This document shows, in pieces, positions 5,319 to 60,271 of a stretch of 64,000 bases of DNA. Source of the DNA: Escherichia coli. Its GTDB lineage: Bacteria > Pseudomonadota > Gammaproteobacteria > Enterobacterales > Enterobacteriaceae. Position 1 is the stretch's first letter, and the number at the start of each line of letters is the position of its first letter. The position numbers and the translations under genes were made by a program. Under the pieces are notes generated by a model. That model worked only from the letters and a program-made list of their open reading frames with translations. It was not told the DNA's origin and made no database searches. The stretch lies in assembly GCF_003334785.1 (NCBI RefSeq), contig NZ_QOWV01000001.1; one strand, written 5' to 3'.

Positions 5319-6071
5319 TTACTTCGCTTTACCCTGGTTTGCAACCGCCGCTGCTTTCGCTGCGATCTCGTCAGCATTACCCAGATAATAGCGTTTCAGC
5401 GGTTTGAAATTCTCGTCGAACTCATACACCAGCGGCACGCCAGTCGGGATATTAAGCTCAAGAATCTCTTCTTCGCTCATGTTATCAAGATATTTCACCA
5501 GCGCACGTAAAGAGTTACCGTGTGCAGCGATGATCACGCGCTCACCGCTCTTCATACGCGGCAGAATAGTTTCATTCCAGTAAGGGATCACGCGGTCAAT
5601 GGTCAGCGCCAGGCTTTCCGTCAGCGGCAGTTCTTTCTCGCTCAGTTTCGCGTAACGCGGATCGTGACCCGGATAACGCTCATCATCTTTAGTCAGTTCC
5701 GGCGGAGTCACTGCAAAACCACGACGCCACTGTTTCACCTGCTCGTCGCCATACTTTTCAGCAGTTTCCGCTTTGTTCAGACCCTGCAACGCACCGTAGT
5801 GACGTTCGTTCAGTTTCCAGGATTTCTCAACGGGCAGCCATGCCTGATCCAGTTCGTCCAGCACATTCCACAGGGTATGGATAGCGCGTTTCAGCACAGA
5901 AGTGTAAGCAAAGTCAAAGCTGTAACCTTCCTCTTTCAGCAGCTTACCTGCTGCTTTTGCTTCGCTTACGCCTTTCTCAGACAGATCCACGTCGTACCAA
6001 CCGGTGAAACGGTTTTCTTTGTTCCACTGACTTTCGCCATGACGAACCAGAACCAGCTTAGTTACAGCCAT
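5319..6071 (-). CDS. gpmA: 2,3-bisphosphoglycerate-dependent phosphoglycerate mutase
   Basis: ORF-track entry trimmed to the internal ATG ([17 protein letters not shown]) preceded by a GGAG RBS; 250 aa. Confidence 0.93.
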
Positions 6072-6096
6072 ATACTTACTCCTCAAATCATCTTTT

Positions 6097-6117
6097 AATG
6101 ATAATAATTCTCATTAT
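6097..6117. promoter_or_regulatory. Fur box upstream of gpmA
   Basis: aatgataataattctcattat closely matches the GATAATGATAATCATTATC consensus. Confidence 0.65.
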
Positions 6118-6272
6118 ATTGCCGCGACGAAGCAACAGCAATGCTTACGCATAACCATAGCGAAAATAGTGGCGCAGTGTAAGGTTGTTGTGAATATTGA
6201 GTTGCAAATATGTCGGTGTTTGCTGGTGATTTGAACAATATGAGATAAAGCCCTCATGACGAGGGCGTAACA

Positions 6273-56060: not shown

Positions 56061-56135
56061 GTAGGCCTGATAAGACGCGGTAGCGTCGCATCAGGCATCT
56101 GTTGCCGGATGCGGCGTAAACGCCTTATCCGTCCT
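56061..56135. repeat. REP palindromes
   Basis: gtaggcctgataagacgcg...gcatcaggc and gccggatgcggcgtaaacgccttatccg. Confidence 0.65.
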
Positions 56136-56401: not shown

Positions 56402-56665
56402 AATTAATCTCTCGCAGGTGATTTTTGTATAAGTGACGTTGTTTCGTCGATGTGATGAGTATCACGTTTTTTTACGAGAGATAAAATCGAAGAGAATTGA
56501 CCGCCTTGTTCAAATAAATTGATTGATATCTAACCTACTGATAAACCATTTATTTGTTGTACTTATGAACTTGTTTTATACCGCGTGGCAGTCACAGCAG
56601 CGTTAAAGGCACGGAATGACACGCAAAATACAAATTATACTCGCTATGCATCTCGCCAGTTGTAG

Positions 56666-56932
56666 TTAACGTAACTGGCTGTCTTTCGAACCTCTGCGAT
56701 TATATCCTGTATAAGCTGGTTTTTGTAAATCTTTCTCCTGCTGACAATGAATACATAAGCGCACGCCAGGAATGGCTTCCCGACGGGCCTGCGGGATGGG
56801 GGCACCGCACTCTTCACATTCATCCAGGCTTTCGCCGCGCGGAATTTCACCCCGAGCGCGGGCAATCGCATCTTCAATTGTACTGTTGATCTGTTCGTTG
56901 ACGGCGTCATCGTTAGCCCAACCGGATGCCAT
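56666..56932 (-). CDS. ybiI: DksA/TraR-family C4 zinc-finger protein
   Basis: 88-aa ORF with CEECGAPIP...CIHCQ. Confidence 0.85.
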   Translation of the reverse strand: MASGWANDDAVNEQINSTIEDAIARARGEIPRGESLDECEECGAPIPQARREAIPGVRLCIHCQQEKDLQKPAYTGYNRRGSKDSQLR

Positions 56933-57005
56933 ATCGACCTCCCCATATCAATACTTGTACAGTTAAGTGTAGCTAATCCAGGGACGAACTCGGGCAGTTC
57001 AAGCA

Positions 57006-57683
57006 TCAGATCTCCGACCATTCCCGCAGCAGATTATGATAAAGATTAAGCAGCGACAGGATCTCTTCACTTTCGCCGTAGCGGCTTTTCAGCGACTGAA
57101 TATTGTTGTCCAGTTCAAACAGCATGGCGCGCTTTTTATCATCGCGGATCATCGACTGGATCCACATAAATGATGCCACTCGTACGCCGCGGGTTACGGG
57201 TGTCACGCAATGCAGGCTGCTGGAGGGATACAACACGAGATCGCCTGCCGGGAGTTTTACCCGATGTTGTCCGAAGGTGTCATTAACGACCAGTTCGCCG
57301 CCGTCGTAGCTTTGTGGATCGCTTAAAAACAGCGTGGCAGAAAGGTCAGTACGCATCCAGCCGTTTTGTGGATGGCTGCGTACTGCGCCATCCACATGGA
57401 AACCATAGGTTTCATTGTTCTGATAGCGATTAAACAGCGGCGTGGAAAGGGTACGCGGCAAGGCCGCGGCAAAGAATAAAGCATGTTGGTTAACCGCGTT
57501 CAGCACCTCATTTTGCAGGGCGGCGTATAACGTGCTGCGGGTGTCGACCTGTTGATTGTTCTTAACTTGCGCACCTTGTGCGCCGGTGGTGACGCGTCCA
57601 TCCACCCATTCGGCTTGTTCCAGTTGTTCGCGAAAACGAGCGACGTCCTGTGGCGATAACACGCCGGGAATGTGGTACATCAT
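57006..57683 (-). CDS. ybiX: PKHD-type Fe(II)/2-oxoglutarate-dependent hydroxylase
   Basis: Start placed at [13 protein letters not shown]; 225 aa; 41 bp downstream of fiu. Confidence 0.85.
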
Positions 57684-57724
57684 ACAATTTCTCCAAAAAG
57701 TGGGGCCTGCGCCCCACATCTGAA

Positions 57725-60007
57725 TCAGAAATGCATATTGGCTGTGAGCAAGAAGGTTCTTGGCTCGCCCGGGTGATAACGGTAGCCGCTCTTGTTGATT
57801 GAGGCGACGTAATCGGTATCAAACAGGTTGTAAACGTTTAGCTGGAAGTCGAGATTGCGATTAACTCGATACCCCAGTTTGGCATCGGCGACCCAGTAAC
57901 CTTCGGTAAACGCTGGCGTTCCCACCGCGCCGTCTGAACCTTTATGCATACTGCCGATATAGCGTGCGCCCGCGCCAACAGAGATATCGTCGGTTGCCTG
58001 ATATTGGCTCCATAAGGTGAAGGCGTGCTCCGGGGTATACGGCAGCGATGAGGAACCATCCTGGGCAACATCTTTGCCGTTTTTGATGGTTGCTTTTTGC
58101 TGGGTATAGCCGCCAATCACCTGCCACGCGGGAGTGATATTCCCGGCCACGGATATCTCATAGCCTTCGACGCGTTTCTTACCGTATTGCGAGTAAGTTC
58201 CGTCATCATTTTGCTCAACTTCATTTTCGATATCAGTGCGGAACAGCGCGGCGGTGAGCAACAGACGTTTATCCAGAACCTGCCATTTGGTGCCAATCTC
58301 GCTGGTGTTGGCTTTTTGCGGTTTAAAATCGGTGCGGTTGGCACTGTTACCGCTGCCAGACTGCGCAAGGGCGAAGTTGTTGCCGCCCGGAGGCTGCTGG
58401 GAAACGGCATAGTTAATATAGACATTGCCGTTTTCCGTCAGGTGATACAGCGCCCCGGCTTTCCAGTTCATCAGATTGCCCGACTTGGCGGTGTCGACGG
58501 TGGTGACCGGAGAACCTTTTGCCACACCAGTTGGGCAGGTGATGGCACCGCGTCCGCTGCCGCCGCAGGCGGTGGCACTGTCATATTCAGTATGATAATT
58601 ATCCAGACGGATCCCGCCGTTCAGCTCAAAATCACGGGTGATTTGCAGCGTATCAAAGGCGTAAATTGCGAAGGTATCCGTCTGACCATTGGCGTTTGCG
58701 CCGTTGCGCGTCAGGCCGCCGGGATGAATGCTGCTGTCAGGATGATAAATATTTACCGCGGGTAACGTCACCGGATTAACGCCGTAGTTAGTCTGCGTTT
58801 CACGGGTAAATTCCACGCCGGTACTGACATCATGACCGATAGAACCGGTATAGAACGTCGAGGTCAGGTTGGTCTGGTTGGTGAGAATTTTATTACTCAC
58901 ATCTTTGGTATTCGCCGTGCGTGACCAGGTCCAGCTATTCACATCGCTGGTGGGCTGAGTAATATTCGACGCCCCGCCCATAATCGCCGTCATCAGGTAA
59001 TCCTGCTTTACGCGCGACCAACGGGTAGTATTGCGAATGGTGGTGTTATCGTTGATGTCGTGCTCAAAACGCATGGTGGCGGTGTCGGTGGTCGAATCGT
59101 CGTAATCGGAATCCGTGCCGTAAAAGTTATGAGTATCAACTTTTCCGGAATGATTCAGGGCCGCCGTTCCCGCAGATGGGGCAGAATAGCCCGGCAAACC
59201 GATGGTCGGAATGCCGCCGTCTGGCGTGTTGTGCTGGGTGACATGCAGATAATTAAGATACAAACGATTCGCTGTACCAAGGCCAAAAGCGACAGAAGGG
59301 GCGACGCCGTAACGCTCATTTTTGACTTTGTCGCGTCCGGCATCGTGCGTTTTTTCGCCCATTACATTCAGGCGCACCGCGGTGGTATCACCAATGACCT
59401 GATTGACGTCCAGCGTGCCGCGGCGGAACCAGGCGCTGCCAATACTGGCGGAGGCGTCAATGCCGGAATCATTGCGCGGCTGCTTGCTGATCATATTGAT
59501 CGAGCCTGTCGGTGCGCTGCGCCCGTAGTCGGTGCCGGACGGCCCTTTAATCACTTCGACCTGCTCGGTATTGAAGGTGTCGCGCGAGACGCTGCCGATA
59601 TCGCGAATGCCATCAATATAAATACTGTTAGAGGTATCGGCACCACGCATATAAATGGCGTCGCCAGTGGTGGAGTTACCGTTCTCACCCGCAAAAAACG
59701 CACCCACGCCGGGGACGTTTTTGAGCGCGTCGGTAAGGTTGGTTGCGCCCTGATCTTTAATCACTTGTTCAGAAATTACCGTCATCGTGCGGGTAGTATC
59801 CGCTACCGGACGCGAGAATTTCGGATCGGCAGATTGTTGTGGCGCATAAAGCGAAGGCGTTGATGCTTCGACAACCAGCGTGTCATCCGCGTTAGTTTGC
59901 CCTTCGGCGGCGAGTGCCTGAGCCACAGGCGTGATGCCAATACAAAGACCGGCAAAGAACGTGAGCGAATGAAATTGTCTGGCAGGGAAATTGCGATTGT
60001 TTTCCAT
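57725..60007 (-). CDS. fiu: TonB-dependent catecholate siderophore receptor
   Basis: 760-aa ORF with a signal peptide, TonB box region, beta-barrel and C-terminal aromatic residue (F). Confidence 0.92.
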
Positions 60008-60111
60008 TTTGCAGGTGACTTTTTCTTATATGTTGAAATTTTCACTGCCACGAGAAAGCCTCTCTGCGGATGCGATGCCACTGTTAATCCCGTGATAGTG
60101 ATCGTGAAAGT

Positions 60112-60136
60112 GATAATAATTTTGATAAGCATTATC
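60112..60136. promoter_or_regulatory. Fur box upstream of fiu
   Basis: gataataattttgataagcattatc is a strong Fur consensus match about 105 bp upstream of the fiu start. Confidence 0.75.
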
Positions 60137-60271
60137 ACTTGGAGCGATTTTCTATCACCCATTGCGCGAAAAAGAAATACATTTATTTACATTGAGTTCA
60201 TATTTGATGTTTTTTGATTACAAAACAGACGAAAACTGCATCCAGAGGCGAATGCAGTTACGTTGGTGGGG

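Follow-up and report, generated by a model that had tools for sequence, protein, structure and literature searches.

The Fur-repressed fiu-ybiX operon of Escherichia coli and the neighbouring gene ybiI

Described receptor-oxygenase pairs and the E. coli locus

Through Fiu, Fe(III)-catecholates and conjugates of catechols with drugs reach the periplasm. Cefiderocol and other catechol 'Trojan-horse' drugs enter by receptors of the Fiu/PiuA type, and mutations in piuC and ybiX are emerging resistance determinants, which makes the question of the YbiX substrate clinically relevant. The PiuA-PiuC pair of P. aeruginosa and A. baumannii consists, as does Fiu-YbiX, of a Fiu-type catecholate receptor adjoining a PKHD-type oxygenase. 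When PiuC and YbiX are aligned structurally with Foldseek, they share 49-50% identity (TM 0.93), and oxygenase loss raises the MICs of siderophore-drug conjugates in both systems. PiuA-PiuC differs in having no ybiI-like partner, which was found only in the Escherichia/Citrobacter group. PiuC has been described as involved in piuA expression. The CciT-CciO pair of Caulobacter crescentus comprises a Fur-regulated receptor and a cytoplasmic 2OG oxygenase, and CciT function is strictly dependent on CciO (PMC12004947). Total cellular iron drops when cciO is mutated and does not when cciT is, and CciT does not import cefiderocol, its substrate apparently being different from that of Fiu (PMC12004947). 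Co-conservation of Fiu-YbiX, PiuA-PiuC and CciT-CciO across Proteobacteria was reported in 2025 (PMC12004947, PMC12004943).

The window (the whole 64-kb stretch of E. coli DNA analysed) was compared with these systems. The genes fiu, ybiX and ybiI lie adjacent on its minus strand in a region 100% identical to MG1655, where they carry the same names. Of 5426 complete E. coli genomes searched, 5418 contain the region (coverage ≥80%). fiu (57725-60007, 760 aa) encodes the TonB-dependent outer-membrane catecholate siderophore receptor, scoring 1507.6 bits against NCBIfam equivalog NF007349 (cutoff 686, residues 1-760 covered) and 260.6 bits against TIGR01783 (cutoff 223.5). ybiX (57006-57683, 225 aa counted from the annotated ATG) encodes a PKHD-type Fe(II)/2OG oxygenase orthologous to PiuC and CciO. 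ybiI (56666-56932, 88 aa) encodes a DksA/TraR-family C4 zinc-finger protein (CxxC-x17-CxxC). The spacer from the fiu stop codon to the ybiX ATG is 41 nt (57684-57724), and that between ybiX and ybiI is 73 nt. The coordinates, shared strand and 41-bp gap stated in a sequence-only reading of this DNA are correct, and its three protein families (siderophore receptor, PKHD-type hydroxylase, DksA/TraR C4 zinc finger) agree with NCBIfam and Pfam. Neither the fiu leader nor any spacer gave an Rfam match at E ≤ 1; the sole match in the region was a REP/naRNA4 element downstream of ybiJ.

The locus corresponds to the fiu-ybiX operon already described in E. coli K-12 as repressed by Fur, with ybiI as a neighbouring gene; the account given below of how it is expressed and what its proteins do is, taken as a whole, probable (roughly 80%). 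Compared with the K-12 reference itself (b0805-b0803, RefSeq), genes, order and Fur operator are the same, and no difference was seen. The locus is ordinary: every element that the sequence-only reading listed is already in the literature, and the finding therefore adds nothing to the question of the YbiX substrate.

Pairing of receptor and oxygenase was surveyed in related genomes. A 44-sequence alignment was too broad to seed the genome scan, and a narrower 12-sequence alignment was used. The 80 loci retained are the nearest relatives of YbiX (≥51% identity), the whole family comprising about 2000 clusters at E ≤ 1e-10. In 57 of 74 loci, drawn from gamma-, beta- and alpha-proteobacteria with a single Verrucomicrobia MAG, a TBDT gene lay on the same strand within 300 nt upstream of the ybiX homologue. 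A further 10 had one within 1.7 kb, so that pairing was reproduced in 67/74 loci of these nearest relatives. Fur-box-like sites of ≥14/19 accompanied 31 of the 67 paired loci, against 20 of 1340 control windows. Conservation of the receptor-hydroxylase pairing in other genera, which the sequence-only reading had named as a check, is thus borne out, and has been published (PMC12004947). The set contained a single Caulobacter vibrioides locus, and the paralogue there had no same-strand receptor upstream.

Fur operator and the fiu-ybiX spacer

The Fur operator of the fiu promoter (60100-60142, minus strand) was located as overlapping, 6-bp-phased Fur-box matches. The 19-bp consensus had no match with three or fewer mismatches. 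The best match was 15/19 (60118-60136), with three more in the array counted at 14/19 (two matches of 14/19, and the best site as read on the opposite strand) and additional matches of 13/19. Together they make up a palindrome, GTGATAAT-N13-ATTATCAC, and the array overlaps GATAAT (60131-60136), the predicted -10 element of fiu. Matches of ≥15/19 numbered four in the 64-kb window, at two sites (the fiu operator and the gpmA promoter), compared with 0.12 in simulated sequence, and a fiu Fur box stands at the equivalent position in Citrobacter, Pseudocitrobacter and Kluyvera. The 'strong Fur box' reported from the sequence is accordingly real, well above chance and conserved, although 'strong' is somewhat generous for a 15/19 match. 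Published work places fiu-ybiX under Fur control as one operon (PMC4676285, PMC4145685), and a fiu-lacZ promoter fusion is repressed by Fur (PMC4676285). With iron present, Fe2+-Fur sits on this operator across the fiu -10 and prevents initiation; with iron absent, transcription enters fiu.

A second match, of 14/19 at 57032-57050 and about 100 nt upstream of ybiI, was considered as a Fur box for that gene. It was rejected as a coding coincidence because it falls in ybiX codons of the conserved LNLYHNLL motif, decays in relatives (13/19 in another E. coli strain, 12/19 or sub-threshold in the Citrobacter and Pseudocitrobacter loci) and is missing upstream of ybiI in Salmonella and E. kobei, where the 400 nt before the gene contained no Fur match of ≥12/19.

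An intrinsic terminator (57695-57717, minus strand) was identified in the 41-nt fiu-ybiX spacer by terminator scan, folding and Term-seq. A stem-loop GUGGGGC-GCAG-GCCCCAC (57717-57700) with a stem of 7 bp, six of them G-C, is followed by U5 (57699-57695) and then at once by the ybiX Shine-Dalgarno GGAG. The spacer folds at -25.6 kcal/mol (z -3.55). The primary Term-seq 3' end of fiu (PMC7815308, supplementary data) is at genome position 839219, which corresponds to window position 57695, the last U of the U-tract. The genome-to-window offset of 781524 used here was checked against the listed intragenic distances of 77 and 344. GC-rich stem, U-tract and an RNA 3' end within the tract together make up the anatomy of an intrinsic terminator, and all three are present here. 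Another Term-seq 3' end was mapped within ybiX.

Many fiu transcripts would thus end 30 nt beyond the fiu stop codon, where the 3' end is mapped. The remainder would pass the terminator into ybiX, the ribosome-binding site of which lies directly after the U-tract, and termination with partial read-through would yield much Fiu and little YbiX. Read-through from fiu into ybiX and ybiI is suggested by the sequence taken together with published co-expression.

The same hairpin could instead serve chiefly to stabilise the mRNA at its 3' end, mark a site of processing, or couple translation by hiding the ybiX ribosome-binding site, and set no ratio. The minimum-energy fold of the spacer lengthens the stem by pairing the GGAG region with sequence near the fiu stop codon, termination and processing look alike in Term-seq 3' ends, and some homologous spacers, for example at Xanthomonas and Stenotrophomonas loci, have a strong hairpin without a U-tract. 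Against this, the anatomy is that of a canonical terminator with the 3' end at its last U, and a hairpin with a T-run was present in 23 of 51 homologous spacers, compared with 3.9% of shuffles. We consider such a role for the hairpin unlikely and retain the terminator reading.

Analogous hairpins were found in 41 of the 51 fiu-ybiX-type spacers of other genera. In Caulobacter an annotated sRNA gene lies between cciT and cciO (PMC12004943) and invites comparison with the spacer hairpin and 3' end of E. coli. That hairpins resembling a terminator recur over several genera between the receptor gene and its oxygenase gene is a small point arising from this check.

YbiX and the receptor step

YbiX contains Pfam domains PF13640 (2OG-FeII_Oxy_3) and PF18331 (PKHD_C) and scores 519.8 bits against NCBIfam equivalog NF003972 (cutoff 399). 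The iron triad H96-x-D98...H158 and the 2OG-binding R168 are in place; in an alignment of 44 diverse homologues D98 and R168 never vary, and conservation of H96 and H158 is at least 90%. The model (pLDDT 97) matches 3dkq and the PiuC crystal structures (9ghl, 9qn0-4; TM 0.93 to PiuC), and the only ligands in the PiuC entries are 2OG, malate or 2,4-PDCA. A literature search found no paper on these PiuC structures, and no substrate of YbiX, PiuC or CciO is reported in PMC12004947 or PMC12004943. On inspection, the N-terminal 20 residues of YbiX have no hydrophobic core and no signal-peptide-like features, and its homologue CciO has been described as cytoplasmic (PMC12004947). A periplasmic YbiX was rejected on these two grounds, and periplasmic modification of the ligand, one of the two locations proposed from the sequence, is therefore unlikely. 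By its sequence YbiX qualifies as a cytoplasmic Fe(II)/2OG oxygenase with an intact active site.

A requirement for YbiX in productive Fiu-type uptake is established genetically, having been published for YbiX, PiuC and CciO. Loss of ybiX alters uptake of catechol conjugates and of cefiderocol: a ybiX nonsense mutation confers resistance to a catechol-PNA conjugate, and the cefiderocol MIC is raised in a cirA ybiX double deletion (bioRxiv 10.1101/2023.10.30.564798, 10.1101/2025.02.14.638246). The effect of a ybiX deletion on catecholate or siderophore-antibiotic uptake, which the sequence-only reading had put forward as a check, is thus already in print. Selection for cefiderocol resistance also yielded, together with cirA loss, an IS inserted between fiu and ybiX; the authors, who also describe the double deletion, put its effect down to ybiX having been cut off from the promoter. 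The insertion supports dependence of ybiX on transcription from upstream.

One explanation is that YbiX processes the imported ligand: once a catecholate or drug conjugate has entered through Fiu and crossed the inner membrane, the enzyme would hydroxylate or degrade it in the cytoplasm, with iron release, ligand detoxification or a maintained inward gradient as the outcome. It is the commonest hypothesis in the literature for PiuC, YbiX and CciO (PMC12004947, PMC12004943). Close same-strand linkage of receptor and oxygenase under Fur control in many genera suits a pathway enzyme, and the nonsense mutant resists a catechol-PNA conjugate whose action needs the cytoplasm. The targets of cefiderocol and BAL30072, however, are periplasmic. 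Loss of YbiX or PiuC raises the MICs of these two drugs, which a purely cytoplasmic late step should not do. Blocked iron release should moreover derepress Fur targets and raise receptor levels, and the nearest characterised folds are protein prolyl hydroxylases rather than small-molecule catechol oxygenases, HygX being the exception. Ligand processing is for these reasons somewhat improbable as the function of YbiX.

Since loss of YbiX gives cefiderocol resistance although the cefiderocol target is periplasmic, we infer that YbiX most likely is a positive factor at the receptor step and not a mere degrader of imported ligand. It could promote expression, assembly or activity of the receptor by hydroxylating a cytoplasmic target. 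This reading rests on drug-resistance genetics, and a Keio cassette or an IS could change fiu mRNA stability in cis. The Caulobacter data also tell against it: total cellular iron falls on loss of cciO and does not on loss of cciT, and the authors weigh siderophore biosynthesis or catabolism as well (PMC12004947).

After PiuC and 3dkq, the best fold matches of YbiX were prolyl 4-hydroxylases, including the P. putida EF-Tu hydroxylase (TM about 0.5), together with one small-molecule enzyme, HygX. P. putida PPHD (which acts on EF-Tu), PHD2 and collagen P4H have the double-stranded beta-helix and HxD...H triad of YbiX. The likeness is limited (TM 0.43-0.6, identity 10-24%), and the helical PKHD_C domain at the C-terminus is particular to YbiX. 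A translation component as target, suggested from the sequence, is conceivable on this likeness. As a speculative extension that we regard as distinctly improbable, YbiX, PiuC and CciO might be prolyl-hydroxylase-like modifiers of a cytoplasmic protein, for example a translation or envelope-biogenesis factor, rather than ligand-processing enzymes, with an attenuating terminator conserved across Proteobacteria setting the ratio of enzyme to receptor. Such an enzyme would draw on O2, Fe(II) and 2-oxoglutarate, and the cognate TonB-dependent receptor would depend on its modification in order to be made or to work.

ybiI beside the operon

A sigma-S-type extended -10 element, GCTACACTTAA, was found in the ybiX-ybiI spacer (56963-56973, minus strand) as an exact match to KCTAYRCTTAA, the single match in the 64-kb window. 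It marks a separate ybiI promoter, and an E-sigma-S-dependent promoter of ybiI has been described by ChIP-seq, qRT-PCR and KMnO4 footprinting (PMC4447067). The same element is upstream of Salmonella ybiI; in Salmonella and Enterobacter kobei, ybiI and its promoter occupy the syntenic site and fiu-ybiX is missing. Kluyvera has the order rlmF-mcbA-fiu-ybiX-ybiJ without ybiI. A ybiI-like gene followed ybiX only in Escherichia, Citrobacter and Pseudocitrobacter (5/80 loci), and none was found beside fiu-ybiX in any of the 80 loci outside the Escherichia/Citrobacter group. Given this promoter of its own, the occurrence of ybiI without fiu-ybiX and that of fiu-ybiX without ybiI, ybiI is a separable, lineage-specific neighbour and not an integral conserved part of fiu-ybiX, and is best kept apart from the system of receptor and oxygenase.

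The sequence-only reading had joined all three genes in one cluster, in which YbiI could couple the pair to RNA polymerase; spelled out as an obligate module, YbiX would sense the state of iron or ligand and YbiI would pass it on to the polymerase. The genes do adjoin on one strand, and a sequence scan found no terminator between ybiX and ybiI. All three belong to the Fur-1 iModulon (PMC10164565), serum induces ybiI together with the Fur regulon (PMC4145685), fiu-ybiX-ybiI has been termed an operon (PMC12004943), and YbiI is TraR-like. Conserved co-occurrence of the three genes was nevertheless not found in the loci surveyed, and a layout with one promoter and no internal signals is contradicted by the mapped terminator 3' end after fiu and the sigma-S -10 before ybiI. 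An obligate three-gene module is therefore very improbable. Joint Fur control stands in that the three genes vary together, and is qualified by the independent promoter of ybiI. Read-through past ybiX would probably continue into ybiI; this would account for the covariation of ybiI with the Fur regulon, and ybiI in E. coli is probably co-expressed in this way.

YbiI matches PF01258 (Pfam, E 5.1e-12) and scores 160.5 bits against NCBIfam NF008243 (cutoff 96). Its zinc-ribbon cysteines C39, C42, C60 and C63 are invariant, its NMR structure is 2kgo, and TraR structure 5w1s was matched at E 5.5e-10; against the TraR subfamily model it scores 59.5 bits, just under the cutoff of 59.7. YbiI resembles TraR of the F plasmid and DksA, both of which act on RNA polymerase through its secondary channel, in its C4 zinc ribbon and in a conserved segment, PIPxARR...PGV...C..C. 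At the N-terminal tip YbiI has WANDDA where TraR has DEADEA, and the acidic DxxDxA motif of the TraR tip does not recur in register; by residue number, D3-E-A-D6-E-A8 of TraR stands against S3-G-W-A6-N-D8, and the WxxDxA of YbiI (W5...D8-D9-A10) appears only after a two-residue shift. TraR is without the conserved 13-residue C-terminal tail of YbiI (GYNRRGSKDSQLR). Overexpression of YbiI has been stated, as 'data not shown', to rescue dksA auxotrophy (PMC2613031), and this statement is the sole basis for the proposed coupling of YbiI to RNA polymerase. Though weak as evidence, these likenesses suggest that YbiI is probably a TraR-like factor that would bind RNA polymerase's secondary channel in stationary phase or under stress.

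The ybiI transcript end was placed at 56643-56679 (minus strand), where a hairpin without a U-tract (56655-56679) extends across the stop codon. The primary Term-seq 3' end of ybiI, genome position 838167, corresponds to window position 56643 and was recorded in two conditions.

Iron control of the fiu-ybiX-ybiI locus

The region 56600-60250 was 100% identical to MG1655, in which it is annotated as fiu, ybiX and ybiI, and 5418 of the 5426 complete E. coli genomes contained it at ≥80% coverage. The source DNA is E. coli K-12. All three genes are on the minus strand (fiu 57725-60007, ybiX 57006-57683 and ybiI 56666-56932), and these coordinates agree with the 41-nt fiu-ybiX spacer read from sequence earlier. 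Equivalog models for Fiu, YbiX and YbiI all scored far over their cutoffs, Pfam domains were 2OG-FeII_Oxy_3 and PKHD_C for YbiX and zf-dksA_traR for YbiI, and the family assignments are unambiguous. PDB entries exist for YbiI itself (2kgo) and a Shewanella YbiX orthologue (3dkq), together with several recent PiuC structures.

A search at fiu with the 19-bp Fur-box consensus, allowing ≤3 mismatches, gave no match. A 6-bp-phased array of weaker matches was found at 60100-60142 (15/19 at 60118; 14/19 at 60106, 60112 and, on the reverse strand, 60118), with the sequence GTGATAAT-N13-ATTATCAC overlapping the predicted -10. The window contained four matches of ≥15/19, at the fiu and gpmA promoters, compared with 0.12 in Markov simulations. 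Citrobacter, Pseudocitrobacter and Kluyvera have the same box at the same position ahead of fiu, and the Fur box proposed from sequence is upheld. The highest-scoring Fur-box match anywhere in the window, 16/19 (TATAATGAGAATTATTATC) and accompanied by phased matches of 15/19, was at 6094-6118, immediately upstream of gpmA (phosphoglycerate mutase; 5319-6086, minus strand), a known Fur-regulated gene. A hairpin and T-run (CTGCATTCGCCTCTGGATGCAG TTTTCG) at 60235-60256, directly 3' of the mcbA stop codon, is presumably the mcbA terminator, shielding the fiu promoter from upstream transcription.

Published regulation agrees with Fur control and operon status of fiu-ybiX, as had been proposed: the two genes are regarded as an operon known to be targeted by Fur, with a fiu promoter fusion repressed by Fur (PMC4676285); the Fur-dependent serum response includes ybiX and fiu, with ybiI induced alongside (PMC4145685); and the Fur-1 iModulon contains all three genes (PMC10164565). 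The locus is thus already known, and the checks suggested in the sequence-only reading have essentially all been done, given the published work on Fur, pairing, ybiX phenotypes and YbiI.

The receptor-oxygenase pair and the role of YbiX

YbiX homologues formed about 2000 clusters (50% identity, E ≤ 1e-10). Across 44 diverse homologues, D98 and R168 were invariant and H96 and H158 conserved at ≥90%. A genome scan yielded 80 loci from gamma-, beta- and alpha-proteobacteria and one Verrucomicrobia MAG, of which 74 had enough upstream DNA for pairing to be counted. A Fiu-like receptor gene on the same strand ended ≤300 nt before the oxygenase gene in 57/74; ten further loci had the receptor 380-1714 nt upstream and seven had none. 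Fur-box-like sites (≥14/19) preceded the receptor in 31/67 loci, versus 20/1340 random windows from the same loci. On these counts pairing is general, as is its control by iron. Pairing outside E. coli, put forward earlier as a check, agrees with two 2025 J. Bacteriol. papers (PMC12004947, PMC12004943), in which the pair was described as syntenic and co-conserved across Proteobacteria, Fiu-YbiX and PiuA-PiuC were explicitly named, and Caulobacter CciT was strictly dependent on CciO.

No signal-peptide-like N-terminus was found in the YbiX sequence and CciO is described as cytoplasmic (PMC12004947), both of which argue against the periplasmic option raised previously for YbiX. The YbiX AlphaFold model (pLDDT 97.1) matched PiuC and 3dkq at TM 0.93. 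Prolyl 4-hydroxylases came next (TM 0.43-0.6, 10-24% identity), among them the EF-Tu-bound P. putida PPHD, so a protein substrate is possible but not strongly indicated. In published work, a ybiX nonsense mutation gave resistance to a catechol-PNA conjugate, cefiderocol MICs rose when cirA loss was combined with deletion of ybiX or with an IS element inserted into the fiu-ybiX spacer, and piuC mutations are recognised cefiderocol-resistance determinants. Losing YbiX or PiuC raises MICs of drugs with periplasmic sites of action; on these genetics, YbiX more probably serves the receptor step itself than acts solely by breaking down ligand in the cytoplasm. The ybiX resistance genetics may also stem from cis effects on fiu mRNA.

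The spacer hairpin and transcript ends

The fiu-ybiX spacer contains GUGGGGC-GCAG-GCCCCAC followed by U5 (57695-57717) and the ybiX GGAG; a 71-nt segment with this hairpin folded at -25.6 kcal/mol (z -3.55). Published Term-seq ends (PMC7815308) were placed in the window using an offset of 781524, checked by the listed intragenic distances (841454, 77 nt into fiu; 838863, 344 nt into ybiX). The primary fiu 3' end (839219) corresponds to 57695, the last U of the spacer U-tract. Among 51 homologous spacers of ≥30 nt, 41, drawn from many genera, had a stem of at least six pairs, four or more of them G-C (versus 36% of shuffles), and in 23 a T-run came directly after such a stem (versus 3.9% of shuffles); stem sequences differed between genera. 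The hairpin probably attenuates transcription as a terminator or stabilises mRNA, so that more receptor than enzyme is made. Its recurrence is a modest architectural observation, and a public dataset already covers the E. coli case. The Caulobacter annotation places an sRNA gene between cciT and cciO (PMC12004943). The two ORF-internal ends, at 59930 and 57339, could arise from early termination, from processing or from regulation by an sRNA.

ybiI as a separable neighbour

In the 80-locus scan, a YbiI-like gene followed ybiX only in E. coli, three Citrobacter loci and Pseudocitrobacter. Kluyvera has the order rlmF-mcbA-fiu-ybiX-ybiJ without ybiI (locus L006, 7676-8134). Salmonella enterica (L082/L083, 5797-6267) and Enterobacter kobei (L084/L085, 5878-6267) carry 80-82% identical ybiI at the same chromosomal site without fiu-ybiX, flanked by rlmF and ybiJ, with an mcbA-like gene on the rlmF side in E. 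kobei. The rlmF...ybiJ site therefore occurs in three states among enterics (ybiI only, fiu-ybiX only, all three genes), a pattern that points to independent gain or loss of fiu-ybiX and of ybiI there.

Within the 73-nt ybiX-ybiI spacer, GCTACACTTAA (56963-56973) is the only window match to the sigma-S extended -10 consensus KCTAYRCTTAA. Salmonella ybiI is preceded by an identical element; in Citrobacter and Enterobacter, closely similar elements stand equally far from the ybiI start codon. The ybiI promoter binds E-sigma-S, with preferential open-complex formation and rpoS-dependent expression (Peano et al., PMC4447067). Together, this promoter and the separate occurrences speak against ybiI as an integral partner. 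The overall interpretation in the sequence-only reading was partly supported: it stood for Fur, the operon and conserved pairing, and lacked support for ybiI as such a partner and for the periplasmic role. A terminator scan of the coding strand between ybiX and ybiI found nothing, so read-through would best account for the way E. coli ybiI co-varies with the Fur regulon. Near the 3' end of ybiX, a Fur-like match of 14/19 falls in the codons for the conserved LNLYHNLL motif; its DNA sequence is not itself conserved, and it is therefore probably not an operator.

A 2009 paper described YbiI as a TraR homologue 'in an iron metabolism operon' and reported that its overexpression rescues dksA auxotrophy (PMC2613031); that paper's remark on unpublished data makes it plausible that YbiI is an RNA polymerase secondary-channel factor. 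YbiI shares with TraR the C4 ribbon and the PIPxARR...PGV segment, whereas it has no in-register copy of the TraR DxxDxA tip and the C-terminal tail common to orthologues (GYNRRGSKDSQLR) is missing from TraR. The first 22 residues and this 13-residue tail were invariant or nearly so in enteric orthologues. The C-terminus is encoded at 56666-56707, and its last codons and stop codon lie inside an inverted repeat (56655-56679, 9-bp stem) that precedes the ybiI 3' end mapped by the same Term-seq at 56643; this stretch may thus be constrained both as protein and as RNA. Just downstream of ybiJ, 56064-56134 matched Rfam naRNA4 (RF02564, REP-derived nucleoid-associated RNA) at 78 bits.
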